A stretch of 64,000 nucleotides of DNA, from contig CBDHHL010000029.1 in the NCBI GenBank assembly GCA_965263355.1, positions 10,442-74,441 of the forward strand, in the 5' to 3' direction. Within the stretch, counting starts at the first letter, position 1, and every line of letters begins with the position of its first letter. A program made the position numbers and the translations under genes. A model generated the notes under the pieces. The model had not been told where the DNA came from. It worked only from the letters and a program-made list of their open reading frames with translations, and did not search any database. Below are positions 4,983 to 51,487 of this stretch, piece by piece. The DNA comes from Leptolyngbyaceae cyanobacterium (lineage in GTDB: Bacteria > Cyanobacteriota > Cyanobacteriia > Phormidesmidales > Phormidesmidaceae).

Positions 4983-5693
4983 ATGCCTGCTGCTGGACAA
5001 CCGTTCACTCCGCCACAAGCGAAAAATGTTATTCCTCGATGTGCACTTATCCCAACGGGAAGTACAGCCAGACCCGTAGCTGGCACCTTCACCACATCAG
5101 GCTCAACAGATGTAACGACCGAGGGAACCGCTGAGTCAGTTACAGCTACGTTGTCAGCCGCCATCAGTAGCGTTGTCCAAGTTGGGCAATGGCTTGAGTT
5201 TGTTGCCCCTGCTGGAACCTCTGTCTTAGCTCAAGTCCGTACTCTGTACAACGCAGCAGGGACTAGCCTTGAGCTAACAGCTAATGAGACTATTCCGACA
5301 GGTTCTACAGCTGTATTCCCGGTCGTAGGCAGAATCAGGCAGTCAGCTGATTTGGCTGAGACTGTCGCGACTACAGCGTTTAGCTCATTTGATCACAGCT
5401 CTTCTGACGTGAGTATCGGGGAGGGCTCAGGGACATTAACTGTCAATGGTGGTTACAACTACTATGACGCGTTTGTCGCGACTGCTAAATACGCCAAAGA
5501 CAACAACCAGAAGTTGTATGTTGAGCGAGAATTGCCATCGCCCGATGGCAGCGTGTTTACTACAGGCCCCATCGACTGGGCGATCGCAATCCTGACGGGG
5601 CTAACCTCCAACGCTCAGGATGGTTCTAACGTAGGGGCAGACACGACATTCACCATCTCTGGTGCTGTTAACCGCATCGAGCCTCAAACTTGA
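4983..5693 (+). CDS. Major tail tube protein
   Basis: 236 aa, Thr/Ser/Gly-rich; C-terminal TTFTISGAV; AGGAG RBS; upstream of chaperone and tape measure. Confidence 0.7.
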   Translation: MPAAGQPFTPPQAKNVIPRCALIPTGSTARPVAGTFTTSGSTDVTTEGTAESVTATLSAAISSVVQVGQWLEFVAPAGTSVLAQVRTLYNAAGTSLELTANETIPTGSTAVFPVVGRIRQSADLAETVATTAFSSFDHSSSDVSIGEGSGTLTVNGGYNYYDAFVATAKYAKDNNQKLYVERELPSPDGSVFTTGPIDWAIAILTGLTSNAQDGSNVGADTTFTISGAVNRIEPQT

Positions 5694-5938
5694 TGAAGAT
5701 TTTTAGTAACCGTGACGTGTTTGTGCTTGGTGAGGTTCGACCTGGCGGGATTTGGGCTAATGCTGTTTGGCTGAGGCTCAAATCCATGCCAGGGACTACT
5801 CAAGAGCTATGGAATCGCTTAGAGCAAACTATCCATGGAACGGTTGAGATTCCTCAAAAAACAGACCAGATCCACACTGACATTTTTTTGCCTTATGTTA
5901 CTGCCCTGGAAGATCGAGTCCAAGAAACGAATAATTGA
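5690..5938 (+). CDS. Hypothetical tail-operon protein
   Basis: Coupled to the tail tube stop codon. Confidence 0.5.
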   Translation: MMKIFSNRDVFVLGEVRPGGIWANAVWLRLKSMPGTTQELWNRLEQTIHGTVEIPQKTDQIHTDIFLPYVTALEDRVQETNN

Positions 5939-6619: not shown

Positions 6620-9600
6620 CGCTGGTAGAGTTATTTTTCAGGTTGGGATTGATCGCGTATCAGCAGATCGCGCTATCTCTCAGCTTGAGCAGCGCTTTGC
6701 TGGGATTGGCGATATTGACCTAAAGATTCCTGATGCAGGCCCAGCAGCTAGAGCGGCTAGAACTGTTCAGGATGCTTTTTCGAATATCCAAATCCCCGAG
6801 TTTAATTTCAGCGCAAATACTCAGCAGTTGTCTCGTTCTGTTCAGTCAGCAAAAGATGAGCTACTGACCCTGGAACAAGCTATTGAGGGTCTGCAGAGGC
6901 AACGGATCGATGTTGAACTCAAAGTTGCCCGTGGGGACGCTGACTTAGCTAGGCTTGACTCACAACTCCAAGGGCTCCGAGACAAAAGGATTCAGGTCGA
7001 CGTTAATGCGCGGGCTGCAGCGGCTGAAGTGCAAGCTGTTGACGAACGGCTTAAGGCGCTAACTCGTGATGCAGTGCGGCTTGAGTTGGATGTTGAATCG
7101 GAGGAAGCCCAGCGCGAGCTGATAGATGTTAACGCTCGGATCGAAAAACTTGAATCACGTCGCGTCAAAGTGCAAGCGACGATTGACAATGTTGATTCTG
7201 AAGCAGCTAAATTTGAAGCAAAGATCAATGAGTTAGAAGCCCGCAGTATCAAAGTAGAGGCCAATACAGGAGATGCGAGGGCTCAACTAAACCAGCTAGA
7301 TAGAACATTGGAGGGGCTTAGCGGGGATGATGCGGCTGCGACGTTAGACAGGCTGCAGCGAGAACTAGGCAGCACTGCCGACGCGGCCAAAAAAGCTGAG
7401 AACGAGACCAAATCTTTTAGCTCTGCTTTGTCTGGGCTTGCGGCTGGGGCTGCTTTTGCGGTGGTCGATCGGCTGGTTGACGCGTTTGGGGGCGCTGCTG
7501 AAGCGGTCGTTGGGTTCGTCTCCGAGACGCTTCAGGTCGGAGGGGCTGCACGGTCTGCAGAGTCAGCCTTGACTACGATTTTAGGCTCAGCTGAGGAAGC
7601 CCAATCGGTCCTACAGGATCTGTCAAACTTCGCTGCAACCACACCATTTGACTTGCCTGGCATTCGCTCGGCTGGCCAGCAACTTTTAGCTTTTGGATTT
7701 AACACTAATGAATTAATCCCAACGTTAGAGGCTATAGGCAATGTTGCGGCAGGCGTTAACGTCCCCTTTGATGAACTAGCTGAAATATATGGGAAGGCAA
7801 GAGTCCAGGGTCGATTGTTCGCAGAAGACATCAATCAGCTAACAGGGAGAGGCGTCCCGATTATCGCTGAGTTCGCGGCTCAATTTGGAGTGGCAGAATC
7901 TGAAGTTCGCGAGCTGGTTGAGTCTGGCCAGATAGGATTTGCTGAGCTAGAGCAGGCATTTGTTAGCCTCACGGGGGAAGGCGGAAAATTCTTCGATCTA
8001 CTAGGAACCCAGTCAGGAACGGTCGTTGGCCAAATCTCCAACCTAGGGGACACGGTCACTCAGTTTCAAGAGCAATTATTCAAAGCATTCGAGCCTGCGC
8101 TGGGTGCTGGGCTCCAAACACTAACCGCAACATTAGAGGAAACCGCCAATAGCTCAGAAGCTTTAGATATTTTGAGTGCTGCTGGGGATCGACTCGCTGA
8201 ATCTTTAAGTGCAAATCCAGAATTAACAGAACGACTAGGGGAAGCTTTGGCGAGCTTAGCAGATAGTGGCGCATCGGCTGTTGCTACGGTTCTTGACCGA
8301 ATAGGCCAAGCACTAGAGAACCCTGAAAATATAGAAGCATTTGCGGAGGGAATTGAGACATCAGGGGAAGCGCTGGGGAATTTAGTAGAAATTGGCATAG
8401 CTGTAGCCGATGCCTTGATATTGGTAGGCTCAACTTACTCGTCACTTGTTGACACTGAAGCAGTTGCCTCAGGGCTAGGAGGCTTGGCTGATGCACTGCA
8501 GGCGATAGTATCTGTAGCCAGTAACGTTGTTGATGGACTTGGCTCAATCGCTGATGGCGTCGAACGGGTGTCTGGAGCTGTGCCAGGTTTGCGGAATGCG
8601 GTTGAAAATGTTGGCAGATTTGGCCCAGTCATTGGGACTGCAAAGACGGCGTTTGATAGCTTTTTTGGGGGCCAGGAAGCTGTAGCCGCCCCCGAAATTG
8701 ATATATCTAACGCGGTTCCACAGCAAGATGAGCTGGATAAATTTGTAAGAGCCGCGAGAAGCAGCAATGAACAGATAGCCGCCGATTCTATTCAAGCTGC
8801 CAAGGCGGCAGCGCAGGCCAGATCTCGGGAAGATAAAAAGGCTGCTAAGGAATTCGAAGAAGCCCAAAAAGAAGCTTTGGCCAATATTGACATTGCCCAA
8901 CAAAACCGCATTGCTGCTGTACGGCAGAATCAAGCGGCTGGCAATATTTCTGAGGAGCAGGCAGACGCACAGGTCAGTGAGATTGAGTCTGATGCAATTC
9001 GGGAGAGAATCCAACTGCGTGAGGATGAAATAGCGAAAATTGAAGACTTCGCTAGTCGGCAGGCCATCTCTGAAAAAGACGCTACGGATCAGATTAGGGC
9101 AGCCAGGGAGGAGATAGCAGACCTGACACTGGAAAGCATTGAAAGTGAAATTGATGCGCAAGATGCGGCTAGAGAGGCAGCCGAGAAAAAAGCAGAGGCA
9201 GCCAAAAAAGCCGCGTTAGAACAACTGGATGCGCAACAACGGCTAAACGACCTGCAGGCACAGCAGGTTTCTATTCAGTCTGGAATCGCGTCAACTGCGC
9301 TCCAAGACCAGGCCAACCTGATAGGCGCTCAGGTTTCTTTAGAGCAATCTCGCCTGTCACTTTCCCGTCAAACGCTCGAAGGGAAATTAGCTGAAGCGGA
9401 AGCAGCTGAAGACGTTGTGGCCGTTGAGGAAATAAGAGATCGGCTGCTTCTTAACCAGCGGCGATCTATACAAGCTGAATTCAACGCCCGCCGTCAACAG
9501 CTACAGATACAGCAGCAGCTAACCCAGCTAGACGCAGATCGACAGCTCAGACTAGGAGAGATTGCGGAAGCTGAGGCCAGGATAGCGGTTGAGCGTGCTA

Positions 9601-21683: not shown

Positions 21684-22135
21684 TAGCTAAATAATCTCCT
21701 CAATCCTTTTTGTTTCCCGCCCTGCAGCCGCTTGTGATGTTTTCTGCCTAGCTCAATTAAGAGTCGCTGACGCTTTGTCTGTTCAACTTCAACATCACTA
21801 GCCGCTTTAGCTTGGGATAGCTGCTTAACAGTTTCTGCCTTGGCCTCCATAGTGGTCATATGCCCTTGGTGGCCTAGGCTAGACTTCAGCATTTGTAATT
21901 TTTGTTTGTCAATTTCTCTGAGTTGCTCGTCAGCTGTTTTATATAGATCAGCTTGAGTTTTAACCGTCTTAGAGATAGACCTGAGCTTAGATTTAACAGC
22001 CCTAGCGTAAACGGTGGCATACTGAGCCTGTACTTTTGCTAGCTCAGCAGACTGAGCCATTGCCGTTACATCTTCGGGCTTTACGTTAGTTAGGTCCGTA
22101 ATGACGCCAAGTTGCTGAAGTCTCTGGTCTAGCAT
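21683..22135 (-). CDS. Basic coiled-coil protein
   Basis: Lys/Gln-rich heptads; amphipathic C-terminus GLRRLFS. Confidence 0.6.
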   Translation of the reverse strand: MLDQRLQQLGVITDLTNVKPEDVTAMAQSAELAKVQAQYATVYARAVKSKLRSISKTVKTQADLYKTADEQLREIDKQKLQMLKSSLGHQGHMTTMEAKAETVKQLSQAKAASDVEVEQTKRQRLLIELGRKHHKRLQGGKQKGLRRLFS

Positions 22136-35550: not shown

Positions 35551-36561
35551 GTGAGTATCACATGGTTTCGTCTGTATCACGACATGCCCAATGACAGGAA
35601 ACTTAGAAAATTCAGTCCACAGCAAAAATGGGCGTGGGTAGTGCTTTTGTGTTTAGCCAGCGACTCCAAAGAAAGGGGGTTTGTGGATACGGGGGATGAA
35701 GAAGACCTAGCGGATTATTGCGGATTCGAAAGTACGCAAGACTTTCAATTTTTTTTGGACAAACTTCGCCAAAAAGGAATGATCGAACCGTTCCCAGGAA
35801 GGCTAAAGATCACCCACTGGGAAGACAGGCAGTATGAAAAACCTAGCGACAAACCAGAGGCGATAAAAGCCCGTGTAGCAAAGCATAGGGCTAAGAAAAA
35901 GGCTCAAAAAGAGGGTGTAACGGTAACGCCTTGTAACGCGTTACAAACGCTAAGTAACGCGGATGAAACGCCAAAGAAACACCCTGTAACGGACAGAACA
36001 GATACAGATACAGATACAAAGAAGAAAGAAGAAATAATGTCACCTGAAGGTGACTTGTCACGCGTGGCATCGGATAAGTCTAAAAAGCGGAAGGATGCAA
36101 GCTACTACCTGAAAAAGTGCTCTGAAGCCTACAGGAGTAAGTTTGAGGATTGGTGGACTTGGTACAAGTCCAGGTGCGAGGATCTTGGCTCTCACTACGG
36201 CTCAAAGGCCAGCGCAGCTCAAGTGTGGGCTCAGATGGAAAAGGATTTTGACATCGAGCAATTCAGGCTAGGGTGCTCGACTTGGTTCAAGGAAGCTAAA
36301 GCCAAAGGCAGCAAAGCGCCTCATGGATGCATTTTTCTTAAGGGCAAGGATACGCACAAAGACCCGTACTGGGTAGCAGCGCTGGAGTCGCTGAAGCCGC
36401 AGCAAAAGTCAGACTTTCTTGCCACATCGCCAGTGCAAACACTCACGATTACTCCAGAGCAAGAGGCTGAGTTGAGGGCTAAAGACCCAATGGAATTAAC
36501 CGACGAAGAGTTCGCCTTGCTCAATCCAGGATTCAAGATTTACGGCAAGGGGGCAGCATGA
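35551..36561 (+). CDS. Phage replication initiator/replisome organiser
   Basis: WFRLYHDM..D.K...LLCLA...ITHWEDRQ...RVAKHR, repeat linker, TDTDTD; directly upstream of DnaB. Confidence 0.8.
   Translation: MSITWFRLYHDMPNDRKLRKFSPQQKWAWVVLLCLASDSKERGFVDTGDEEDLADYCGFESTQDFQFFLDKLRQKGMIEPFPGRLKITHWEDRQYEKPSDKPEAIKARVAKHRAKKKAQKEGVTVTPCNALQTLSNADETPKKHPVTDRTDTDTDTKKKEEIMSPEGDLSRVASDKSKKRKDASYYLKKCSEAYRSKFEDWWTWYKSRCEDLGSHYGSKASAAQVWAQMEKDFDIEQFRLGCSTWFKEAKAKGSKAPHGCIFLKGKDTHKDPYWVAALESLKPQQKSDFLATSPVQTLTITPEQEAELRAKDPMELTDEEFALLNPGFKIYGKGAA
35917..36018. repeat. Iteron-like GTAACG cluster plus ACAGAT x3 (candidate origin)
   Basis: GTAACG at 35917, 35923, 35933, 35954, 35986 and inverted at 35939. 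Confidence 0.65.
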
Positions 36562-38057
36562 CAATTGCGTTCAACATACTGGACCACGTTGGCCAGCTCA
36601 CCCCAGTGGAAGAACGGGGCAAAAATGGGTACTACCATTGCCCGGTGTGTGGCGACGATAATTTCACGGTCTCCAAAACAGGCGCTTATCAGTGCTGGGG
36701 CAATCAGTGCAAGCCTGAGGATATCCGCAACGCAGTTAGCCCACTGAAAAAGGCAGACAGGCTAACCTCAGTTCAGCGAGAAAAGATAAAGCTCAGCAAG
36801 CAATCCAAAGAAGCCGAACTTGGCACTGCTGAGGTAAAGGCTCAGGCTGAACATTACATGCTCATGGTGGCAGAAAAAGTCATCTCAGAAGCTGAGGCCT
36901 ATCTGAGGCTTTCTGAGTGGTGTAAAAGCACCCGTCATGATGAGTTCAACGCTAAGCGTATTCTAAAGGGCTTCCTGGAGCTGCTAGGGCCATCTGATGG
37001 AACGTTAGACCCGACAGAGGATGCTAAAGTTTTGAAGTCGCTAGTCAAGGCTTATGCTGAAGAGCGTGATTTGACTTGCAAGTATGTTTTGAAGGGTCGC
37101 ATTACGACTCGCTTTAAGCTCAATGACTCTCAAATCGAAGCGCTTCTTGAGCAGGTTGCCCCATCAGCGAACTTAGATTTTCGGCACTGTTCAGAAGACT
37201 TTGAGGATCGTGATTACTTAGCCCAGTTAGAGGCGCTTTCTAGGAATGAGATCCCTGCTGGCTTAAGTACTGGTCTGCTAGGGCTTGATCGAGTGCTGGG
37301 AGGGCTTGAAGAGAAATCTCTTTACATCATTGGAGGTAAGCCGTCTCAAGGAAAATCCGCCCTTGCCCAGACTGTTACTCGTGAAATATTAAAAAAATAT
37401 CGCATCCCTACGGCTGTGTTCACTCTTGAGATGCCTGCGCGGCAATGGAAGGGGAGATGGCTGTCAGCGGAGAGAAGCATTGATTACACAAAGATTCGGC
37501 TGGGCACTTTTTCAGAGTACGAGTGGGGGCAAGTGCTTGATTGCATGGCTTATTTCTATGAACTCCCGTTGTTCCTTTCAGAAATTAGCGGGATCACCCC
37601 TAGCTACTTGCGTAGGAGTTGTCTAGCTATTTCTGAGAAATGCAAAGAGCAGTACGGTCAGGGGCTTGGCTTAGTTGTCGTCGATTACTTGAATTTAATG
37701 CGCTGCCCTGGCCATGCAAATCGGACTCAAGAGGTGTCGCAGATCGCTAGAGAACTGCAATCTTTAGCGAAAGAGATTGGGTGCCGAGTAATTGCCCTAA
37801 GCCAACTTCGGAAAGGTGATGGCGTTGCGTCATCGAAAGAGCCTGGACTTGATGATTTGCGTGAGTCTGGAGAGATTGCCCAGGTTGCTGATGGGGTTGT
37901 TTTAGTGCATCGGCCAGGCCGCTATGACGAGACTGTTCCAGATAGCGTCAGTAAGTTGATTGTGGCAAAAAATCGCCATGGGAAGGTTGGTGAGTGTGAG
38001 GCAGTGTTTGAAGGAAAATACATGAGGTTTTTGGACGCAAGCGGGAGGATGGGTTAA
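36558..38057 (+). CDS. dnaB: DnaB-family replicative helicase with N-terminal primase-type Zn finger
   Basis: CPVC...CWGNQC; GGKPSQGKS, TLEM, VVDYLNLM, LSQL, LRESGEIAQVAD, KNRHG. Confidence 0.9.
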   Translation: MTIAFNILDHVGQLTPVEERGKNGYYHCPVCGDDNFTVSKTGAYQCWGNQCKPEDIRNAVSPLKKADRLTSVQREKIKLSKQSKEAELGTAEVKAQAEHYMLMVAEKVISEAEAYLRLSEWCKSTRHDEFNAKRILKGFLELLGPSDGTLDPTEDAKVLKSLVKAYAEERDLTCKYVLKGRITTRFKLNDSQIEALLEQVAPSANLDFRHCSEDFEDRDYLAQLEALSRNEIPAGLSTGLLGLDRVLGGLEEKSLYIIGGKPSQGKSALAQTVTREILKKYRIPTAVFTLEMPARQWKGRWLSAERSIDYTKIRLGTFSEYEWGQVLDCMAYFYELPLFLSEISGITPSYLRRSCLAISEKCKEQYGQGLGLVVVDYLNLMRCPGHANRTQEVSQIARELQSLAKEIGCRVIALSQLRKGDGVASSKEPGLDDLRESGEIAQVADGVVLVHRPGRYDETVPDSVSKLIVAKNRHGKVGECEAVFEGKYMRFLDASGRMG

Positions 38058-40339: not shown

Positions 40340-41800
40340 CTAACGGTAAAATTGAACCTTTACCCGTTGTTGTGGCGAAAGTTGTTTCCCATGAACAACA
40401 ACCTGCTTGATTAGTGAGTCAAGAATTATCCTTAGCTCACTGGGGGCTAGTTCTTCCCAGAATTCAGGATCCGCAGCAACCGTTTCGTAAATGTCAACGT
40501 CGTTTGGATCTACGTCTTGCCCAGTGGCTTGCTCTAGTTTTGATAGTTGCTGCTGCTTAGCCTGGATCACTCCACTCAATTCCGGATCCGCCATTGCCTG
40601 CAGCTGCTGTATCTGGTTTCTGAGTTTTATTATTTCTGGGTTCACTTCAGTGTTCGGCTCAGCAAATTCTTGAGCAATGTCGAGTGCCCTAGCGCAAACC
40701 TGTGAGATCACTTCCTTGAAGAATTGATCCGTTTTAATTGAATTCTTATAAGGGCACTGCCTTTTCACTCGGCTGTTAATGGTTGATTCTGCTCCTCCAC
40801 GGCAAACCAGATATGAATACGTTTTTCCCTGCCTATGGACAGTACTATTATTGTGTCTGCCGCCGCATAAGCCACACTTAATTTTGCCAGCTAATGGCTT
40901 TCTGCTCCTGGGGAATCCATTGTTCATTGGATTAGGAGCAGAGGCAATATTTTCGACAGTTACTTGCACAGCTCGCCATCGGTCAGGATCCATAATCGCT
41001 TCATGGTCTCCCTTCCTGACTAGCTCATTAGGCTTGCCAGGGAAATCAACCAGATAACCACGAATCACGGGAGACTGGACCCATCGCATAAATCCCTTAG
41101 TACTGACAGGGAAGTTTTTAGCAACTCCCCATCTCTCAGGATGCTTTTCGCTATAACGACCGCACATTGCCCGAATAGTGGCCCGGTATCCTCCAAGCTC
41201 AATTAACGTATCGATCATTTCGATAGCGATTTCCCGATAAGTCTTTCCGTCAGAACCAGGGAAAATATCATCATTAATTACTAGCCGCTGATCGCTGTCC
41301 TTTTTATAGCCAAATGGCGGATTAACTATCCTGTTTTGACTACGCCTGAACGCATGCCCTTTTACACTGTGCTCCCGTGCTTGGTCTCGTTGATGCTGCG
41401 CAAATGTGGCATCCAGGTTAGCTTGCAGGTTCCCGGCTGCACTGGTCAGGTCGATAGGCTTGATCCCTTTGTCCAGCTCGATTAATTCGCAGTCATTTTC
41501 TAAAAGTGCATCCCTGATTTTTACCCACACTCCAATATCTCGATGCCCCCTGGAGTGATACGGGACTACAAAGTATTTCTTATTAGGATCTTTCAACCTG
41601 GCTAATGCTTTTTGTAAATCCTTGCGTTCGAATATGCCGCCGGATTCAGCATCAGAATAAATATCAGTAGGAGCAATGCCGACCGCTTCAAGACGCTCTA
41701 AATAACGCTCGGGACTATGGCCCTCTTGCTCCTGCCGTTGCGTCGAAACACGATAATACCCAATGGCCTGAGATGGGTCGAAACTACTGTTTGCGGTCAA
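40340..41800 (-). CDS. Large serine recombinase (integrase), XisF-like
   Basis: Catalytic YYRVST, D.ESG...R, SR, PFGY, HEAI, Zn ribbon CGLC...YLVC, coiled coil, LIKQVVV. Confidence 0.92.
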   Translation of the reverse strand: MTANSSFDPSQAIGYYRVSTQRQEQEGHSPERYLERLEAVGIAPTDIYSDAESGGIFERKDLQKALARLKDPNKKYFVVPYHSRGHRDIGVWVKIRDALLENDCELIELDKGIKPIDLTSAAGNLQANLDATFAQHQRDQAREHSVKGHAFRRSQNRIVNPPFGYKKDSDQRLVINDDIFPGSDGKTYREIAIEMIDTLIELGGYRATIRAMCGRYSEKHPERWGVAKNFPVSTKGFMRWVQSPVIRGYLVDFPGKPNELVRKGDHEAIMDPDRWRAVQVTVENIASAPNPMNNGFPRSRKPLAGKIKCGLCGGRHNNSTVHRQGKTYSYLVCRGGAESTINSRVKRQCPYKNSIKTDQFFKEVISQVCARALDIAQEFAEPNTEVNPEIIKLRNQIQQLQAMADPELSGVIQAKQQQLSKLEQATGQDVDPNDVDIYETVAADPEFWEELAPSELRIILDSLIKQVVVHGKQLSPQQRVKVQFYR

Positions 41801-41972: not shown

Positions 41973-42458
41973 TTATGGCTGGGCCGATTGCTCTATCCAG
42001 CTTGGGACGTAATCGGTTCTATCGCAGTTCATTCCGTATTCCTGAATCAAAGGCAGTAGAATCCTGTCGGCCACCCTTGATAGCTCCTCGCTCAGCAGAT
42101 CTTCAACCGGAATGTTTAGCTGTTGAGCTTTTCTGAGAGTAGCTGAGTCCACTGGGATCGTAATATTCGCTTTCAAAATTAGCCTCCAACCTCATAGTTG
42201 GGCTGCATCTTGCAGGACTTTCCAACTTGATTCTTCTACAACAAAAGTCTCGGTGCCGGGGGCACTACATAAAGCGTATCCTTTACGCTTCAACCCTTCT
42301 TCAGTATCCTCAAAAGACAAAGGATCTTCAGACCAAGGGAAGACTTCTGCAAAGTCTTCTCCCTTGTAACCCCAATAGCATCCGAGGTCGTCTTTTACGA
42401 TTCGGTCGAAAGTGTAATGATTGATTTGAGCAGACATAATTTTTAACTCCGTTCTCAC
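41973..42458 (-). other. Two small ORFs (41973-42176 RHH/CcdA-like; 42192-42458 acidic hypothetical)
   Basis: Downstream of the leftward promoter at 42472-42500; GGAG(G) RBSs. Confidence 0.45.
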
Positions 42459-42471
42459 TTAACTTGCCCTG

Positions 42472-42545
42472 ATTGTATACGTTACATTTTTGAGTGTCAA
42501 CACTTTTGTTGAGGACTTGACAAGTCATCTTTAAGCGCTTATCTT
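42472..42545. promoter_or_regulatory. Divergent sigma70 promoters
   Basis: - strand TTGACA(42500-42495)-17-TACAAT; + strand TTGACA(42517)-17-TATCTT. Confidence 0.65.
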
Positions 42546-42558
42546 TTGATAGCAATCA

Positions 42559-42861
42559 ATGATTTTATTGAGGCGCATGAGCGAAGAGATTACACCTCAA
42601 CAGCTGTTAGATGCAGTTGAGAACCCATACAAGCTATTAAGTAAGTGGGTTCTAATGCGTGGTGGCTGGACTGCTTTGTATAAGGTTTTTGGCTATGTTT
42701 CAGCACAAAGCTTTAATGAGGCTTTTAGTCGTAGGGCCACTAAAAACCGATGGACTGGGAAGGGGCTGAGAACTCATTTGTCCATACTGGTTCATCTAGA
42801 CAATAATAGTCCAGAATTAGTCCAAAAAAATAGCACTCTCAATGAAAATGTTGAGGAATAA
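42559..42861 (+). CDS. Small putative DNA-binding protein
   Basis: Follows the rightward promoter; HTH-like segment. Confidence 0.45.
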   Translation: MILLRRMSEEITPQQLLDAVENPYKLLSKWVLMRGGWTALYKVFGYVSAQSFNEAFSRRATKNRWTGKGLRTHLSILVHLDNNSPELVQKNSTLNENVEE

Positions 42862-42934
42862 GGGGTTTATTGGGCTGATTAGTTGCGGTTGCAGCAGCAA
42901 GTCAAAGATATGATTTTTCGGAAGTAAAAAAAGT

Positions 42935-42956
42935 ACTTTATCATTCCGTAATTCCT
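42935..42956. repeat. Left direct repeat of the CRISPR cassette (partner 45553-45574)
   Basis: ACTTTATCATTCCGTAATTCCT vs ACTTTATCACTCCGTAATTCCT, 21/22 identical. Confidence 0.85.
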
Positions 42957-44635
42957 CTTTTCTTGTGGTTCTTTGCGGCGTTAACATCTGCATTTTGCTT
43001 CTGTTCAAATAGGCTACAGCTCTCATTTACGCAAATAAACGTGTCTTGGGCTGGCCTGATGCCTTTCCCTCCGCAACAATGACAGCGTTGTGATGAGTAT
43101 CTAGCCTCCGTCTCTATGTATAATTTCCCGGCTTCCTCTAATTTAGATTTTGTTTTAGTTCTAAGGTCGCCCATACAGGCTATTTTCAATGATCTGTTCA
43201 ATCCTGCCTTAGCTGTTCTGCCGTTTTGCTCGTAATAACTTCCATCTTCAGCTAACTTAGGCGTTGTCTGCCTCCCCATGTTAGTTAACGCCGTAGCCTC
43301 CCAGGCGATGACATCATAAGTTCTGGCTAACCTGGTTGACAGCTTATGATTGAAAGCATTTGAACTATTAACAGCTCGCTCATGCAGCCTGGATATTTTA
43401 TTCCTAAGTTTTTGCTCGTTATTAGTGGCTTCACGCTTCCCACGCTTCCATATTTGTCCTAGCCGCTTATCATTTTTTTCAGTCATAATGTCAAGCTTGG
43501 ATTGCAGCTTTTCAATATGATTGTGTATTCGTTGTCTGCTTTCGTTAGGATTAAATAAATGACCTTCGTCAGTCGCTACAATTGCCTTAACGCCAGGGTC
43601 AATGCCCGCCATATGCCCGGTTCGTTTAGCGCATTTTGAGTCTTCTATTAGCAAGTATGGCAGCTCATTTTCTATTGACTTTTTCTTGGCTAATGCCGCT
43701 TGATAGTCTTCACTGTTAGCTAACGCCTTGGCTTGCTCCTTTTTCCCTTTAATGCCATCAATAACTTTTTTCTTGATAGCGATTAAAACTCTTTTTTGCC
43801 GTTTAAGCTCTAATCTATTTTCTTCTTCCGCTTCACTTTGAGTAGTTAAGCATAGATAGAAGCCACTCGGTTTTAATATCAGTTTGTAAGTCTTTATTAC
43901 ATAGCCTTCGAGTCTTTTTGAATAGCTACGATCGCACGGTTCTAAAACTAAGCCTTGACCGTCGAATTGCCCTTTTTTGAACGGGATGGCTTTTTGATTA
44001 TTGTTCAGCGTGCTAATTTTACACTGCTTGCCGTCCTTGTACTTTGGCTGCTTTCTAGCGGGCAGTTTCCCGTCTAAATAAGCCCTCCAGGCAACCTCAA
44101 AGTCAGCTAGTAGCCCCCCAACAAAATCGCTATTGCACGTTAATTCATCAAGACCCTGAGAACTTCGTGACGCATTTAGCAACGCCATATTGTCTAGTCC
44201 CCATGATTTCCCCTTTAGCTCACGTATTAATGGGACGCCTTCCTTGAAATAAGGGACTTCGATATATTTATGGGGTTCTGGCTTTATCCGCCTATATGGC
44301 TTATCCCCAGTCACTAACTCATAGCCAAGTTTTGTTTTGCCATCGCCATAGTGAATCAAAGGGGCTTTATCTGACTTCTTAAAATACGGACCTCCTTTAG
44401 CAATCTGACAAGCTGCGCCATTCCAACCGCCACTCTTTGAAAAGCGTAACGGCGTTCTAATGCAGCCTGATAAGTCGACGCCTTTCTTTTCTACCCAGGC
44501 ATACCACTCAAGGCAATGATTATGTAAGGCTACGGCCCGTACATAATTCCACAACCATTCAAGCTCTCTGCAAATTTTCTCGTATGTAATTAGTGTTTCA
44601 GGAGTCGGCTGGACTTTTACCTTGATCGTCTTCAT
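42941..44635 (-). CDS. TnpB/Cas12-family RNA-guided nuclease, CRISPR-associated (C2c8/type V-U-like), 564 aa
   Basis: N-terminal KVKVQPT...WLWN; RuvC-I GIDPG, RuvC-II IAWE, YSSQRCHCCG...C Zn finger, RuvC-III NADVNAAKN; larger than typical TnpB; no tnpA; adjacent array. Subtype is tentative. Confidence 0.88.
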   Translation of the reverse strand: MKTIKVKVQPTPETLITYEKICRELEWLWNYVRAVALHNHCLEWYAWVEKKGVDLSGCIRTPLRFSKSGGWNGAACQIAKGGPYFKKSDKAPLIHYGDGKTKLGYELVTGDKPYRRIKPEPHKYIEVPYFKEGVPLIRELKGKSWGLDNMALLNASRSSQGLDELTCNSDFVGGLLADFEVAWRAYLDGKLPARKQPKYKDGKQCKISTLNNNQKAIPFKKGQFDGQGLVLEPCDRSYSKRLEGYVIKTYKLILKPSGFYLCLTTQSEAEEENRLELKRQKRVLIAIKKKVIDGIKGKKEQAKALANSEDYQAALAKKKSIENELPYLLIEDSKCAKRTGHMAGIDPGVKAIVATDEGHLFNPNESRQRIHNHIEKLQSKLDIMTEKNDKRLGQIWKRGKREATNNEQKLRNKISRLHERAVNSSNAFNHKLSTRLARTYDVIAWEATALTNMGRQTTPKLAEDGSYYEQNGRTAKAGLNRSLKIACMGDLRTKTKSKLEEAGKLYIETEARYSSQRCHCCGGKGIRPAQDTFICVNESCSLFEQKQNADVNAAKNHKKRGITE

Positions 44636-44798
44636 TATTTTGTACGTCGTTTTGTGGCAGCTCTGGCAGCATATCAATAAAGCGTTCCAATAGGTCTGCT
44701 ATCGATATATCCCAAAGTCTACAATACTGCTCTAGCTTTTGTTTGCGACTTTGCTTGATGCGCGCGTAAATCCTGCCTTCTCTATTCTCTTTTCCCAT
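44598..44798 (-). CDS. Ribbon-helix-helix regulator upstream of the nuclease
   Basis: RIYARIKQSRKQKLEQYC...SIADLLERFIDML; overlaps the nuclease start. Confidence 0.75.
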   Translation of the reverse strand: MGKENREGRIYARIKQSRKQKLEQYCRLWDISIADLLERFIDMLPELPQNDVQNNEDDQGKSPADS

Positions 44799-44814
44799 TT
44801 ATATTAAAAAATAC

Positions 44815-44843
44815 TTGGCGTACAAAATATAACACGCTAATAT
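44815..44843 (+). promoter_or_regulatory. Candidate promoter for ncRNA/array
   Basis: TTGGCG-17-TAATAT in an AT-rich gap, just before the structured region. Confidence 0.55.
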
Positions 44844-44849
44844 AAGGAC

Positions 44850-45040
44850 ATCGCAGTTTGGGCGACAAGGCAGCGGAAACGTTGTTGGATGGCTTCAGCG
44901 CTAAGGTTCTCTAGGGGGCTATGGGTATCTTCTGTCGGGAAACCGATAAACACCAGCCGAAAGGCAAGATAGGAGCAAAAGGAGTCCGTAAGGCCCTTAT
45001 AGATTCGCCGGATCTATGGCGAACAGTCTCAACTTTTTTT
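44850..45040 (+). ncRNA. Putative tracrRNA/omegaRNA-like structured RNA
   Basis: Four GNRA-capped hairpins (44870-85, 44934-47, 44956-65, 44986-93), enclosing helix TATCTT/AAGATA, terminal TTCGCC/GGCGAA stem and T7 run at 45034-40. Confidence 0.7.
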
Positions 45041-45080
45041 GGCAAAGCTAAGCGAGGCCAAAAGAAGAACCTTGAAAAAC

Positions 45081-45099
45081 AGGGATTAAAGCTTTGGCA
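45081..45099 (+). other. 19-nt perfect anti-repeat in the leader
   Basis: AGGGATTAAAGCTTTGGCA is the reverse complement of repeat nt 3-21. Confidence 0.85.
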
Positions 45100-45171
45100 A
45101 AATTGCCATTTTATGAGCTTTGCCAGAATCGCTCATAAAAGCCTTGCGGCTAAAGGGATGCAGCTGTTTAA

Positions 45172-45554
45172 GCTGCCAAATCTTTTATCCCTACCAAGGG
45201 ACTGAAACCATGATGGGGCGATTCTGGATATTGATTCCCTACCGCTGCCAAAGCTTTAATCCCTACTAAGGGACTGAAACGCGGCAAAACCATTTGCTTT
45301 AGCTACGTCATCGCTGAGGCTGCCAAAGCTTTAATCCCTACTAAGGGACTGAAACAGCAGGTCAAAATCTGGAGAATTAGCAATCGCGATGGCTGCCAAG
45401 GCTTTGATCCCTACCAAGGGACTGAAACTAGCAATTGATAGCGATGAGTAAGGCATCACGGGCTGCCAAAGCTTTAATCCCTACCAAGGGGCTGAAACGA
45501 GTCAATCTCTTGGATCACAGCCAAGCTTTTCTTGCGCTGCCAAGGGACTGAAAC
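45172..45554 (+). CRISPR. CRISPR array: five 37-bp repeats plus one 19-bp internally deleted repeat; five spacers
   Basis: Consensus GCTGCCAAAGCTTTAATCCCTAC(C/T)AAGGGACTGAAAC at 45172, 45244, 45319, 45392, 45462; GCTGCCAAGGGACTGAAAC at 45536. Unique spacers of 35, 38, 36, 33, 37 nt. Orientation from the 3' GAAAC and the degenerate last repeat. Confidence 0.97.
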
Positions 45555-45558
45555 TTTA

Positions 45559-46431
45559 TCACTCCGTAATTCCTTTTAGCCCGAGTATAGTTACGACTGA
45601 CCCCACGATCAGCGTAGACCACTCGAATATGTTCTTAATAGTTTCGTGGTCCAGGTTCAGTGCGAACGCCGCGATTGCAGCCAATGATACGCCAAGTACA
45701 AGCATGCCAAGCTTGATTTTTTTCTCAGCCTTGCGACGGGCGAGTAGCTGGGATTCTTGCTGACGGTTTAACGCTCGCTCTTGCTCCAGCGTGCTACTAA
45801 GGTCTAATAGGACACTGCTTTGTTCATTGAGCTTTTGGCCAAACTCCTCACGCTCTTTGGAGTATTGGACTTGCATCCGGCCCATGGCTTCAGTGAGCTT
45901 TTCTAGCTGATGCTTGGCCTGTGTGGCTTCCTGTTCGTAGATCCTCCGCTCCATTTGGATAGCTTGGAATTGCTGCAGCGTTGGGGGGTCCGTATCATCT
46001 CCCGGCTCTTTTTCTGCAGGCCACTCAAGGATGCAATAGTATCGTGAGTTAATTAAATCATTTTGGAATTTAGGGAAAATAGTGATACTTCCTGCAAGGC
46101 CAGGACGGAGCTGCATGAATCCAGTCACAGGACGATGGCCAACCCATACTCGTTGTTTCGACGGCTTCCATTCGCCGTCGACTAAGTGGCCATCGTGAAC
46201 AAAATAATCCCAGCCCCTGGGACTTGCCTGGTTCTCTTCTGCTAACAAAGTGCATTGACGAGAGCTGATCCAATTTTGGCAGCGGGCACCGACACCAATC
46301 TGAATGTGGTTTTCTGCAGGTTCAGCTCTGCCAATCGTAATTGGCCCACGCCTGAGTCTTTCTAGTGAGATTTCGTGTTGCTGATCACTCCCGCCTATTT
46401 CGGTGATCAGCAGATACTCTTCGGCTTTCAT
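45559..46431 (-). CDS. FHA-like domain, coiled coil and two C-terminal TM helices
   Basis: ITIGR...WISSRQCTL...VHDG...S...WV (degenerate FHA motifs). Confidence 0.65.
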   Translation of the reverse strand: MKAEEYLLITEIGGSDQQHEISLERLRRGPITIGRAEPAENHIQIGVGARCQNWISSRQCTLLAEENQASPRGWDYFVHDGHLVDGEWKPSKQRVWVGHRPVTGFMQLRPGLAGSITIFPKFQNDLINSRYYCILEWPAEKEPGDDTDPPTLQQFQAIQMERRIYEQEATQAKHQLEKLTEAMGRMQVQYSKEREEFGQKLNEQSSVLLDLSSTLEQERALNRQQESQLLARRKAEKKIKLGMLVLGVSLAAIAAFALNLDHETIKNIFEWSTLIVGSVVTILGLKGITE

Positions 46432-46486
46432 ATTGGGCTATAAATACTCTCTTATAGGCTAACCTATAAAAGAATCTTTCTCCTCA

Positions 46487-47020
46487 GTGCTATCTATGGC
46501 CACTATCCCAGACAGTTCAGGGTTACCGACAAGCGGGACAGGCACTGGACGGAGACTTACTCGCGCTGATCTCCAGGCAATGATCGACAAATCGGTCACA
46601 AGCAGTATAGGCGAGGCGTTTCGACTCTCTGGGCAAGCTGACGAGCGGAATGCTGCTAGACTCCGAGACTTGGAAGCCAGGATGGAGACTTTAATAAAGA
46701 AAGTCTCTGACAGCAGCTCGACAATAGCAGAGATAAAGGCTGGCTACGACGAATACAGGGAATGGGGCAGCAAAGTGGCTGAGGCTGTAGCGGCCACTGG
46801 AGGAGATGCTAGAACGCTGCACAGGACTATGGAACGGGTTGATGGCCTTGTTGAGATTGCTCAGTTGTTATTGAGAGTGCTAGAGCCAACAAGCAGGGCG
46901 ATCAATTGGATGATCGACCGACTGCACCGGCTGGACAAAAGAACATACAGTCACAAAGACGGGGCGGATATCACTAACCTAGTGAATGGCCCCCGACGAA
47001 GATCGAGTGATCGCGGGTAG
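46487..47020 (+). CDS. Coiled-coil hypothetical protein
   Basis: Heptad-rich ORF divergent from the FHA gene. Confidence 0.5.
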   Translation: MLSMATIPDSSGLPTSGTGTGRRLTRADLQAMIDKSVTSSIGEAFRLSGQADERNAARLRDLEARMETLIKKVSDSSSTIAEIKAGYDEYREWGSKVAEAVAATGGDARTLHRTMERVDGLVEIAQLLLRVLEPTSRAINWMIDRLHRLDKRTYSHKDGADITNLVNGPRRRSSDRG

Positions 47021-48069
47021 TGGCGCAGGGCGACCGAATAGGTAACCCTGCGCCATGTCACAGCCGATTGCCTTAAGCATGTCGGCCTGTTGCTGGGTTT
47101 CCACGCCTTCAGCGATAACTTTGATGCTGAGTTTTTGCGATAGCGCCACAATTGCGTCAACCATTACTCTGGATTCGCGAGCAGGCAGGCCACTAATAAT
47201 AGATCTGTCGAGCTTTACCAGGTCAACTTGACCCTTCAGCAATCTATCGTAGCTGCAGTATCCGGTGCCGAAATCGTCCAGGGCGATCTTTACGCCTTTC
47301 CCCCTAGCTGACTGAATCCGGCTCTGAATCTCCTCAGAAACAGCCTCAGTCTCCAATATCTCCATATGCCCTCTAGCAGGCAGCTTTTGATCGTGCCAAT
47401 CTGCTCTAGCTAGAGTGAATGGGCTGATATTAAAGCTGATCCACTGGCCAATCTTGCTTGAATCTGCCTGGGTTCGCTCGATTACCCAGTAGCACAGCAA
47501 GTGTTCACTGTTTGCCTTTCTCAGTAAAGGCAAGAAATCCCTGGAAAGATTAATGCATTGTCTTTTGCCCATCTTGACAACGCCTCATAACCAACGGTCT
47601 CATCGGATCTTAGGTCAACTATCGGCTGATAATGCAGGGCAAATCCGTTGTGGTTAATTGCGTATTTTATTTCTGAAAGCCTTTGTGTTTCAACCTCTGT
47701 CAGCTCTTTGTCGCCAAGTTTGCTGACTTGGGAAAAGAAATAAAGAAATTCTCCAGACTCAGAATGGAATCCTTCACAGTGCAACGTGCAAGAGATCCAT
47801 TCTGCTGTTTGTCCATGCTTATAACGTTTTTTCAGTGTGAAAGATTTAAGTTCTCCATTGATTACGCTGCGGAATGGGTTGACCTGAGGCGTTAGATCGT
47901 CAGGATGACTGATTTCCTGAAACGTTAGGCGCAGCAACGTTTCTCGTTGATAACCCAGTATTTCACACAGAGTCTCATTTACATCCCAGAACTTTCCGTC
48001 TGGCCCAACAATAGCAGCCCCTATCAGGCTGTTCCGTTTAAGTAGCTCTGGGATTCTATGCATCATCAA
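46979..48069 (-). pseudogene. PAS-EAL c-di-GMP phosphodiesterase, split by a 1-nt frameshift
   Basis: PAS (VNETLCEILGY...ISHPDD), YQPIVDL..GYEAL.RW, then in another frame DFLP...FNISP, MEILE, LDDFGTGY, VKLDRS, IAEGVET, QGYLFGRP. One extra G at 47539-41 restores ..FPGDFLP. Confidence 0.88.
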
Positions 48070-48091
48070 AAATACCTAATCCTGCTTCCGC
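48062..48091. repeat. Direct repeat flanking the methyltransferase (partner 49405-49434)
   Basis: ATCATCAAAAATA(C/T)CTAATCCTGCTTCCGC, 29/30 identical. Confidence 0.9.
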
Positions 48092-48225: not shown

Positions 48226-49404
48226 TTAGCTTGCAAGTAAATCCAATAAGCTTAGCTGTTGCTTTTTGGGGGCTTCCTCAGTCGTTGCGGTCTGTTGTTT
48301 TAGCCAGTCTAATCTAGCCTGCTGCGATACAAAGTTTTGTTCTTTGCCGACTTTGCTACGGGCTACATCTGCCCAATGAGGATCAATATCAATCCCGATA
48401 AAATGTCGTCCATGCTTTTTGGCCGCTACTAGAGTATTGCCGGAACCACAAAAGCAATCTAGAACTACTGAATTAGGTTTAGAACTAGCGTTTATTATGT
48501 GCGCCATCATGGCCAATGGCTTCTCGCATGGGTGCTTACCTGGGTAGCTTTGCACTGTCGGGAAGTCCCATATATCCGTGTAGGGTACGTCTGACGATAC
48601 AATAAACGGTCTACGTAGTTCTTCGTATTGCTGACGTAGTTCTTCGTATTGCTGACGTAGTTCTTCGTATTGCTGACGTAGTTCTTCGTATTGCTGACGT
48701 AGTTCTTCGTATTGCTGACGTAGTGAGTTAGGCCCAAACAATTGGCGTAACCATTGATAATTATGTTTTGTTGGCAATGCCCATTGAATAGAGGTGAACC
48801 AGTGGCCAGCCATACCCGTTACTGTTCGGCTACCTGTTTTTTTTTGAAAAGCTTCAGCAACTTGTCTTATTGAAAATCCAGCCTCCATTCTCTCTCCATC
48901 CAAATACGCCCGCAACGGTTCAAAAACAAACCCGCGCAACTCATCACACTTTGCCTGATAACCTGCTTCGCCTTTAGCTGCGTTATCTGCGCCGTAATGT
49001 TCACAAAAGATAATTGATTCCGATGCAGGGAAATAGCCTCTAAGAATTTCTTTGCATGATCCTTTATGAAATCCTTGTTCCTTTCGCCATCGAATATTGT
49101 TCAGCACATTAAACCGATCGCTCAACAACACCTCAACTCGTGCTGACATTTTTGTGCTCGCGAAACAATACAGGCTGCCATTAGGTTTTAATATGCGTTG
49201 CCATTGCGCGGCTAGCTGGTCAATCCATCTCAAGAATTCTGCTGAATTATCCCAGGCGCGATCCCACCATTCGAATTTGCCTTTAGAACCGCCCCCTTTT
49301 ACCTTAAAAAAAGGCGGGTCAGTTGCTATTAGATCAATGCTGCTATCAGGGATGCCGTTCATCACTTCCAAGCAATCGCCTTGAATAACTTGATTTAATT
49401 CCAT
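48226..49404 (-). CDS. Orphan N4-C/N6-A DNA methyltransferase (beta order) with HTH/coiled-coil insert
   Basis: GDCLE, TDPPF, HPCEKP, VLDCFCGSG; no restriction partner nearby. Confidence 0.92.
   Translation of the reverse strand: MELNQVIQGDCLEVMNGIPDSSIDLIATDPPFFKVKGGGSKGKFEWWDRAWDNSAEFLRWIDQLAAQWQRILKPNGSLYCFASTKMSARVEVLLSDRFNVLNNIRWRKEQGFHKGSCKEILRGYFPASESIIFCEHYGADNAAKGEAGYQAKCDELRGFVFEPLRAYLDGERMEAGFSIRQVAEAFQKKTGSRTVTGMAGHWFTSIQWALPTKHNYQWLRQLFGPNSLRQQYEELRQQYEELRQQYEELRQQYEELRQQYEELRRPFIVSSDVPYTDIWDFPTVQSYPGKHPCEKPLAMMAHIINASSKPNSVVLDCFCGSGNTLVAAKKHGRHFIGIDIDPHWADVARSKVGKEQNFVSQQARLDWLKQQTATTEEAPKKQQLSLLDLLAS
48613..48724. repeat. Perfect 21-bp tandem repeat x5.3 (QQYEELR heptads)
   Basis: ACGTAGTTCTTCGTATTGCTG at 48613, 48634, 48655, 48676, 48697, plus a partial copy. 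Confidence 0.97.
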
Positions 49405-49408
49405 ATCA

Positions 49409-51487
49409 TCAAAAATATCTAATCCTGCTTCCGCCAACTGGGCCGCGTGGAAGTGCCAATATCCGCTTATCCCATTGTGTTCGCATCGCAGTCCAGTTAG
49501 GAGGGGTGATTGATCGATTGCTTCCAATGCTGCCCACCCCAGTCCCCCCAGATCGGCTTAGATCGCCCTGAAGAATATTGCCTGAAAACTGCGGGTCTTC
49601 CTGATAGCTGTTGTCATCGAGCAGAGCTTTACCCAGGCTGTTCCAGTTGGTTAGCCCATTGTATTGGACGTTGTCGATTAGCACGCTCGGAGTACTGTCT
49701 GTACTGTCCCACAAAATATTGTTGTCGGCGGTTATGAAGTCGCCTGTGTTGACCGCTTCGTAGAGGTTCCCGTCGCCTTGCAGGATGCTGTCCCTGATGT
49801 CTGGCAGGCTAAATGCAAATGAGCCGGTGTGATATTTCACTACAGGCTCATTGTCCAGCTGCGTCGTGGTGACATTCCTAACTGTAGTAGTCCCGTTTCT
49901 GCCCCAAAACAAAGCCGTATCCACACTAGTCAGTGAGCCTACAACGGCGTTGCGGACTGTTGTGTTTGCAGTAGCTGAGTTTAAATTATTCCTGACGATG
50001 TATCCGTCAGTGCCCCCATTGATAGCCATGAGCCCATCAACCTCTATCGACTCGTGCCCAGAGAGTACAACCTGAACGTAACCATCAAAATAGCAATCTT
50101 GGATGTCCAGCTCTTCGCAGTCGTCAGCTTGAACTCCTCGCGTCCCGTTCAGTGCATAGCAATCTTTGACCAATAGTTTTTTGAGATCATCAGTCCCATT
50201 ACTGGCATGGCAAAAGAAACTAGCGCCCGTACTGAGTGTATTGGGCGAATCTACAACGCAGCCTAGATAGGCATTCAACGCGGGCTCGTCATTGCTGCTT
50301 TTGAATATGACAGCAGGAGTACTAGACGGGATGCGAGAGTCGTTAACAATATGATCTTTGTAAAAGGCGCAATTCTCGAATATGCCCGATCCGATTTGCG
50401 CAAAATGGCTGTTCCCAAACTTAAAAAGACAATTTCTTACAATTGTCCCTCTAGCCGTAAAATACAGAGCGCCATTATCTCCAGTAGCAGTATCAATCTG
50501 GAAGCCATCAACGATGGACCCGTCGCCAGCGTTGTGAAACGCATACTGCCTAACCCCACACTCATAGACTTTCCCATTAGTGCGGACATCAGAGCTGTCA
50601 GAAGCGTGGATATACAGTGGAATTGTTGCTGCTGAGTTGGCATTTACATTGTCATGACCGGTGTATGTATAACTCCCCGCAGTCGTTTGACATGTCGCCA
50701 CATCAGCCACGTACGTCAGTAGTTCGTCGTCCTCGATAACAATTGGGAACGATTCAATTGCAGTGATCGTGTGACTGATGTTGATCGTCCATGCATTACT
50801 GCTGGCATCGCTGAAGTTGGCGTTAGTCAGCACGTCAGCCGTTGTGACTCGCGGCAGTGGCCTGTCAGTTGATTCAGCCCGAATTGTTAGCCGTTTCCCG
50901 CCAAGATCACATTCCTCCCTAAAGGTGCTGTTGGTGCCATCAGCCGTATTGCGGACAATAATGGTGTCTCCGTCAGACGATGCCGCAATCGCCGCTGAAA
51001 TAGTGGCATAAGGAGCATAGTAATTCCCTGCTATCCCATCAGTAAAACTATCGTTGCCAATAGCAGCGCTGACAAACACTGCAGTAGAGTCAATATTCAA
51101 CGTCGCTTCTACTGCTGCTGTGGGGGCTGTAATCGTAAAGCTGCCAGTGAAGTCAGTGTCATCATCGCCTGCAATTTTTGTCCCCCCAATAATGCTGGCC
51201 GCTTCCCAGTTGACCAGCACGTCGGTCGCGGAGTTATTGAGTAGCGTGGCCTTATGAGTGGGGCTGATTAGTGCAGACCATTCTTGCTTGTTTGCGTTGT
51301 CGACAACCTTGGTCAATCCGTCGCCTTCAGTTAATTTTACGACTTGAGAACCAGCTGTGAGGGTTAATTCGAACCCAGCATTTAGTAATGAATCTTCTGT
51401 TTTGCGGACAAGGAAAACTTTTTTGCTGCCATATCGCCAACTGACGATAGACCCGTTGAACAATTTATCGGCATCAGTGCAGACCAT
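49409..51487 (-). CDS. Parallel beta-helix (pectate-lyase-like) virion protein/depolymerase candidate
   Basis: VFVS...GND...PYATISAAIAA..GDTIIVR cap, then repeated IVRNCLF/FENCAF/VKDCYA strands. Confidence 0.65.
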   Translation of the reverse strand: MVCTDADKLFNGSIVSWRYGSKKVFLVRKTEDSLLNAGFELTLTAGSQVVKLTEGDGLTKVVDNANKQEWSALISPTHKATLLNNSATDVLVNWEAASIIGGTKIAGDDDTDFTGSFTITAPTAAVEATLNIDSTAVFVSAAIGNDSFTDGIAGNYYAPYATISAAIAASSDGDTIIVRNTADGTNSTFREECDLGGKRLTIRAESTDRPLPRVTTADVLTNANFSDASSNAWTINISHTITAIESFPIVIEDDELLTYVADVATCQTTAGSYTYTGHDNVNANSAATIPLYIHASDSSDVRTNGKVYECGVRQYAFHNAGDGSIVDGFQIDTATGDNGALYFTARGTIVRNCLFKFGNSHFAQIGSGIFENCAFYKDHIVNDSRIPSSTPAVIFKSSNDEPALNAYLGCVVDSPNTLSTGASFFCHASNGTDDLKKLLVKDCYALNGTRGVQADDCEELDIQDCYFDGYVQVVLSGHESIEVDGLMAINGGTDGYIVRNNLNSATANTTVRNAVVGSLTSVDTALFWGRNGTTTVRNVTTTQLDNEPVVKYHTGSFAFSLPDIRDSILQGDGNLYEAVNTGDFITADNNILWDSTDSTPSVLIDNVQYNGLTNWNSLGKALLDDNSYQEDPQFSGNILQGDLSRSGGTGVGSIGSNRSITPPNWTAMRTQWDKRILALPRGPVGGSRIRYF

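Follow-up and report, generated by a model that had tools for sequence, protein, structure and literature searches.

The last repeat of a CRISPR array in a temperate-looking tailed phage runs directly into the end of a neighbouring gene, and the same gene end is present a second time at the opposite edge of the CRISPR cassette, where it supplies the last codons of the nuclease. The feature is real and is probably a relic. The explanation that we tentatively favour, with rather less than even confidence, is that the duplication is the scar of a capture event, in which a spacer once served both as guide and as homology arm and is now disarmed.

The phage and its Cas12p cassette

The 64-kb stretch of DNA analysed here (the window) gives matches to tape measure, scaffold and portal proteins and to DnaB, which points to a temperate-looking tailed phage. 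Its host was probably cyanobacterial, since the named homologues of the nuclease come from cyanobacteria and cyanophages. The phage has two separate replication-type modules, one with a RecD-like helicase and a DnaD-like protein (115-2970) and one with a DnaD-like protein and DnaB (35551-38057). The cassette itself, 2.6 kb bracketed by a 22-nt core repeat, consists of the nuclease gene, a tracrRNA and a six-repeat array (Table 1). An XisF-like serine recombinase (40340-41800, a match under the family cut-off) lies outside this segment. No TnpA ORF or insertion sequence ends were found inside it, the ORF list holds no further gene there, and no cas1 or cas2 match was seen beside the nuclease. 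Rfam gave 0 matches over 42000-47000, and a promoter scan stayed at chance level (6 vs 6.6).

Judged by its sequence, the nuclease is a member of the published Cas12p family (type V-P, 'Cas12 hacker'; 10.1101/2025.01.20.633832, also Nat Microbiol 2026 as cited in PMC13728456; structures PDB 9JFS and 9JG3). An alignment built with 28 homologues matches Cas12p (PDB 9JFS/9JG3) over its full length (positions 1-553, E 9e-233). Identity to the protein of locus L004, our stand-in for the solved protein (the printed sequences nearly coincide), is about 38%. RuvC residues D347, E447 and D551 and the four cysteines of the zinc finger are invariant in the homologue alignment. Among the PAM-contacting residues, D148, N213 and Q214 align with D197, N261 and Q262, and the K332 region is not cleanly aligned; C76 aligns with the thioredoxin-contact residue C127. 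As in the published family, we found a TnpB-like effector within 500-700 aa (564 aa here), phage origin, an array with 37-nt repeats, and a tracrRNA with an AAAC:GUUU pseudoknot and its GUUU at nt 7-10. The accessible text of the Cas12p preprint reports a GTN PAM at -3 to -1 (GTA > GTG > GTT > GTC), PAM contacts at -3, -2 and -1 with D197 essential, pairing of crRNA -1C to -4A with tracrRNA 7G to 10U, and PAM-distal cutting (10.1101/2025.01.20.633832). The locus differs from this family in gene order: tracrRNA and array lie upstream of the cas gene and divergent from it, with 44635-44850 between them, whereas in the array-bearing relatives examined they come 3' of the gene. It also differs in that its terminal repeat enters a duplicated flank, an arrangement that goes unmentioned in the accessible portions of the same preprint.

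Other Cas12p loci vary in their own ways. L002/L003 (8155-10928), L005 and L008 have two arrays with different repeats, in tandem or flanking the gene. L009 (2989-3500) and L010 (Cr-LKS4, CrV-01T) encode a Cas12p-like nuclease with no CRISPR array found; upstream, a duplicated block contains two tracr-like units with a GCAGTTC motif, which suggests reversion to single-guide RNAs.

Table 1. Features of the cassette and its surroundings, in window positions.
Feature	Position	Strand	Remark
Left-neighbour ORF, 100 aa	42559..42861	+	Marker for left side of cassette site
GTAC flank	42933..42936	+	-3 to -1 of target copy = TAC; GTA (best Cas12p PAM) at -4 to -2
Left copy, 22-nt duplication of FHA-like gene end	42935..42956	+	20-nt target 42937-42956; provides last codons and stop of nuclease
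Cas12p-family nuclease gene, 564 aa	42941..44635	-	RuvC D/E/D and zinc finger intact; C-terminus KKRGITE, stop
tracrRNA, ends predicted	44850..45099	+	GUUU 44856-44859; partner of repeat -11 to -5 at 45024-45030; long anti-repeat 45081-45099
CRISPR array	45172..45554	+	Five 37-nt repeats, five spacers of 33-38 nt, shortened terminal repeat
Terminal repeat, 19 nt	45536..45554	+	18-nt internal deletion between two CCAA; both tracr pairings kept
Putative flank-derived guide	45555..45574	+	Antisense of FHA-like gene end; right copy of duplication
FHA-like membrane-anchored protein gene, 290 aa	45559..46431	-	C-terminus LGLKGITE, stop; 20-member cluster
Methylase-module repeat, downstream copy, 30 nt	48062..48091	+	Internal control
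Methylase-module repeat, upstream copy, 30 nt	49405..49434	+	End of 692-aa gene (GSRIRYF, two stops); one synonymous mismatch

The duplicated gene end and the terminal repeat

The initial annotation of this DNA had reported that the 3' handle of the last repeat is followed at once by the end of an FHA gene, that the same 20-mer recurs at the other cassette edge, and that nuclease and FHA protein therefore share a C-terminus. All of this was borne out. The repeat ends AAGGGACTGAAAC at 45554 and the 20-mer (45555-45574) comes next; the copy at 42937-42956 has one mismatch, at +8, and is preceded by ...AAGTAC; and both proteins end in GITE followed by two stops. The chance expectation for a 20-mer with at most one mismatch, over both strands of the 64-kb window, is about 9e-6. 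Two bases of the repeat (AC) also belong to the match, so that the duplicated core comprises 22 nt (42935-42956 and 45553-45574, one mismatch); on the other side the duplicated stretch stops at +20. The copies differ at the wobble position of the last Glu codon, GAG against GAA, a change that is silent in each of the two genes.

A comparison of C-termini supports the view that the GITE ending is native to the FHA-like gene and that the nuclease borrowed its last codons from there, since GITE is universal among the listed members of the FHA cluster and is found in only 6 of the 14 close nucleases. LGLKGITE ends all 15 cluster members compared (15/15), with LGLKGMTE in a 72% homologue; the close nucleases end in KKRGITE (6/14) or in NNGLK.LK.G/S (8/14), and more distant ones in KKNGEQ, KKRGD and similar. 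The repeat pair may be read as a target duplication around the inserted 2.6-kb cassette. The label FHA proved to be a loose one: Pfam gives no FHA hit on the protein itself, PF00498 is found in 2 of 6 homologues, and FHA clusters come up at 0.79 for it in the Atlas, a lead only.

The last repeat had also been called truncated. It is indeed shortened, to 19 nt, but it is not truncated at its 5' end, which is kept; compared with repeat 4, 18 nt are lost internally. What remains probably still gives a loadable RNA, in line with the earlier suggestion that repeat and flank could load as a guide, since both tracrRNA pairings are predicted to be kept. A conserved tracr motif, present in 9 of 10 relatives tested, puts the GUUU at nt 7-10 of the tracrRNA if this RNA starts at 44850. 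By duplex prediction, AAAC and the 7-nt partner of 45024-45030 are retained in the terminal repeat, which gains six more pairs with 45039-45044 (-17.3 kcal/mol with 45024-45047). The long anti-repeat duplex is mostly lost (-12.6 vs -28 to -40 for full repeats), and the folding of the terminal RNA is unremarkable (z -0.4 to -0.5). There are parallels for such an RNA: in the accessible parts of the respective reports, terminal repeats give functional extraneous crRNAs by default in Cas12a (PMC6610086) and in Cas12r (10.64898/2026.04.20.719267), and native terminal repeats are usually mutated (11/14), which stops such products (PMC6610086). In those systems the last repeat and downstream DNA can form a loaded, functional guide, and here they may form one that is loaded; the present case differs in that the repeat retains its handle and in that its predicted RNA corresponds to the other edge of its own cassette.

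PAM register and related phages

The register of the guide is fixed by the AAAC:GUUU pseudoknot, the guide beginning after AAAC. The idea that the PAM might match the GTAC-ending flank is not supported in this register, for the reconstructed empty site gives TAC at -3 to -1, and GTA stands one base too far upstream. Because the family's GTN PAM is out of register at the left flank, an empty site with the same flank, as well as the occupied junction, should go uncut, a prediction that borrows its PAM rule from a protein of about 38% identity. GTA, the best PAM of the family, adjoins the C that repeat and flank have in common; the frequency of GT in the window is 0.053.

Natural targets are too few and too mixed to set the PAM of this subclade. 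The five spacers of the window found no protospacers in phages, plasmids, 401 genomes or the window itself. Among the matches listed for 220 spacers of the family at least two are informative; an L013 target has GTG with 4 mismatches in 36, and a self-match in G001 has TTC with 5 mismatches in 34. Two 17-mer spacer matches (CTG, CCA) that were considered as natural targets are probably due to chance. The first 18 nt of an L001 spacer at 8507 match that phage's own genome, G001, at 21751(-), preceded by TTC instead of GTN, possibly a PAM escape from self-targeting.

The register also bears on the suggestion, raised as an alternative in the initial annotation, that Cas12p, guided by the terminal RNA, binds where its own gene ends (3') and so dampens expression. 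The end of the cas gene is the only near-perfect target in the window, but this site is a stop codon rather than a promoter, and binding would need the same displaced PAM. With a nuclease that is catalytically intact by its RuvC residues and relatives that lack the feature, we regard autoregulation or self-binding of this kind as very improbable.

More weight attaches to homing, the main proposal of that annotation, although we still consider it unlikely. Here the RNA made of terminal repeat and flank would cut cassette-free phages during co-infection, and the cassette would be copied in by recombination. This would require either that GTN immediately precedes the 20-mer in empty alleles, in which case the occupied left junction would have gained one base and destroyed its own PAM, or that this subclade reads TAC. 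The proposal retains an intact nuclease, a terminal repeat that keeps both tracr pairings, unlike those of L012 and L017, and published precedents in the flank guides of TnpB and the truncated-repeat guides of Cas12k, as far as the available text of these reports goes. It also has probable nuclease-free kin. Linkage was judged by a proxy, equal lengths of source contigs, for the 16 of 20 members of the FHA cluster that were listed with lengths; 12 of the 16 share no contig size with any of 14 nucleases, so that FHA-bearing relatives free of the nuclease probably exist. The other 4 pair with a nuclease. Seven of the 12 unpaired members share a size with the left-of-cassette gene, and at most two of the 12 could be hidden as further contigs that encode an identical protein, which is excluded for the contigs of 77,623 and 81,257 nt.

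Against homing stands first the TAC at the PAM of the reconstructed site. A second objection is that the array-bearing relatives compared do not share the trait. For 12 of them (some being near-duplicates), the 17 nt that follow each detected end of a repeat were compared with the locus, or with the whole record for L001. Only 1 of the 12 gave a match for a terminal flank guide, purine-rich, with two mismatches and without GTN; rechecking the terminal repeats of L012, L014 and L015 gave no match. The terminal repeats of L012 and L017 are without the GAAAC end. Since the anatomy is absent from array-bearing relatives, the terminal guide is, on this comparison, a lineage-specific event. Direct repeats bracketing the nuclease gene were absent from 13 of 16 loci; of the remaining 3, two (L015 and L006) show repeats of the dispersed kind, and the cassette of L017 is surrounded by a repeat of about 55 nt (5666-5718 and 8549-8601, 2883 nt apart) whose start is not at a CRISPR repeat.

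Alleles of the FHA-like gene were likewise equivocal. This type of junction is kept in 6 nucleases beside differing FHA alleles. The four cassette-linked alleles differ at many distal sites but near the junction share S278, present in 4/4 of them vs 3/12 unlinked alleles; p is 0.019 for this site, which was one out of 9 tested. Such linkage would suit homing, but the pattern fits a single origin followed by recombination as well. Nor does the mismatch between the two copies seem to protect the occupied allele, as had been supposed: it is synonymous, and a methylase module unrelated to CRISPR, described below, shows the same scar.

This DNA was found in three sequencing runs, all from one study, with no RNA run among those listed. 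Their contigs indicate that the left flank is itself variable, because other genomes leave the window sequence at 42907 and 43059. None of the 6 joints in these contigs, which show presence and not absence, skips the cassette, and none of the best 12 of 13 indels falls at either junction; the best 40 of 538 substitutions and the best 18 of 133 loose ends were considered. Apparent 'skips' within the array more likely reflect a canonical first repeat than deletions. Scans of viral sequences with the nuclease, the FHA-like protein, its alignment, the 20-mer pattern and the recombinase found no DNA of a close relative; no FHA match was found in GenBank phages, and the FHA alignment matched 0/5, 0/401 and 0/90 genomes. 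A match in the metagenome scan, L091, spans 16 residues and was dismissed as chance.

Origin of the junctions and relation to homing elements

In the capture that we favour, the cassette would be a phage Cas12p CRISPR system of the ordinary anti-competitor kind, which this lineage acquired a single time, where the FHA-like gene ends. We infer the following order of events. A donor phage would have carried a spacer against this gene end, at a target with a GTA PAM, and Cas12p would have cut the recipient some 20 nt away from the PAM. Repair of the gene-side end on the spacer would then have made the repeat run directly into the gene, and microhomology would have joined the PAM-side end (PAM plus about 20 nt) to the nuclease gene at its 3' end, giving it the GITE terminus. 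The product would have been self-targeting, and would have survived as repeat and guide came to share one C, which put the PAM one base out of register and presumably left the guide inactive.

A Cas step is favoured because the junction lies at the exact end of the repeat, the duplication extends to +20, and the best PAM abuts the shared base. A junction exactly at the 3' end of the repeat corresponds to about 3 of 72 positions per repeat unit. Recombination between spacer and protospacer is reported to move CRISPR loci (Varble 2019, as cited in the accessible text of PMC8616872). There, as would be the case here, the spacer is the homology arm and the repeat continues into target DNA; the difference is that host loci and transducing phages were involved in that work, whereas here the transfer would have been from phage to phage. 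The capture needs, however, a one-base loss that is unobserved, and the coincidences that support it were recognized post hoc.

A plainer scar of module insertion explains the locus nearly as well, although we think it somewhat doubtful. Short-homology recombination between two genomes at gene ends would have duplicated 20-30 nt including the stop, the junction would have met the repeat end through a 2-nt (AC) microhomology, and the terminal RNA would be an inert extraneous crRNA. The same phage offers an internal control. A DNA methylase gene (48226-49404) is bracketed by a 30-nt repeat (48062-48091 and 49405-49434), the end of the upstream gene, again with one synonymous mismatch, and the downstream copy provides the start of a PAS-EAL gene. 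In relatives, one methylase (P0206, N-terminus) has the other allele of the repeat upstream, and the context upstream of another (P0205) is different. In this phage a gene end can thus be duplicated, with a silent mismatch, in the absence of CRISPR, and a scar of the same kind without CRISPR means that no Cas step is required for the cassette either. An origin of the methylase scar by a Cas12p cut (GTT at -4 to -2 on the - strand) was rejected, as the 30-nt geometry misfits a cut near +20.

The plain scar is further consistent with the direct repeats around the L017 cassette, with a PAM that is out of register, and with extraneous crRNAs being the default product of terminal repeats, as the available parts of the Cas12a and Cas12r reports describe. 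On this reading it is by coincidence that the junction lies exactly at the repeat end, that the length is 20 nt and that GTA is adjacent; moreover, no relative lacking the methylase module was found (18 members in 4 close clusters). The methylase has an in-frame 21-nt tandem repeat (48613-48724; ELRQQYE), and its relatives are shorter (366-377 aa). The PAS-EAL gene (46979-48069, c-di-GMP phosphodiesterase-like) is split into two ORFs here and is 362 aa long in most relatives; a one-base difference at 47538 was found in it in the three sequencing runs.

Flank-derived guides are known from homing systems, and the comparison is instructive. According to the accessible text of two reports, TnpB of IS200/IS605 takes its guides from flanking DNA in restorative homing (10.1101/2023.03.14.532601; PMC13565253). 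As in TnpB, the scaffold lies at the edge of the element, the guide comes from the right flank and the target is at the empty site. Unlike TnpB elements, this cassette has no TnpA or insertion sequence ends, and its 22-nt duplication means that the occupied allele keeps a copy of the target; the TAM of TnpB abuts its target, whereas the left-flank motif here is out of register. Of the hallmarks of TnpB homing, the flank-derived guide is thus seen in the sequence, the PAM inferred from a homologue is not in register, and there is no transposase. Cas12k CAST elements use truncated repeat-spacer units as homing guides, as far as the available text describes (10.1101/2021.02.06.429022). They share with this locus a shortened last repeat that has the tracr-pairing part, the GTN PAM family, a cyanobacterial setting and a target near the edge of the element. 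They differ from it in a dead nuclease, insertion by a transposase, separate 17-nt spacers and a GTN in register at nearly all targets; the present nuclease is intact, the flank itself would act as the guide, and GTN lies one base out of place. Because an in-register PAM and a transposase are both lacking, we do not assign the locus to TnpB homing or to Cas12k guides. In the literature that was searched, on natural CRISPR homing cassettes in phages and on Cas12p, the coverage of which was incomplete, we found no description of a Cas12 cassette in which the last repeat continues into the site where the cassette is inserted. A natural phage CRISPR gene drive, in which an active, array-bearing Cas12p would have regained TnpB-like selfishness and would cut sister phages that lack the cassette, last repeat and gene end forming a homing guide that is self-shielded by a one-base PAM shift, strikes us as improbable.

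The locus bears on how type V systems that lack adaptation genes move between phage genomes, since it appears to preserve the junctions of one such move, and these junctions are compatible with transfer by a spacer that doubles as guide and homology arm. Should the PAM prove to be in register in empty alleles, the cassette would be a natural CRISPR homing element, which would link Cas12 back to the behaviour of TnpB. Otherwise, it may represent a self-targeting junction made harmless by a shift of register, or plain module swapping in phages.
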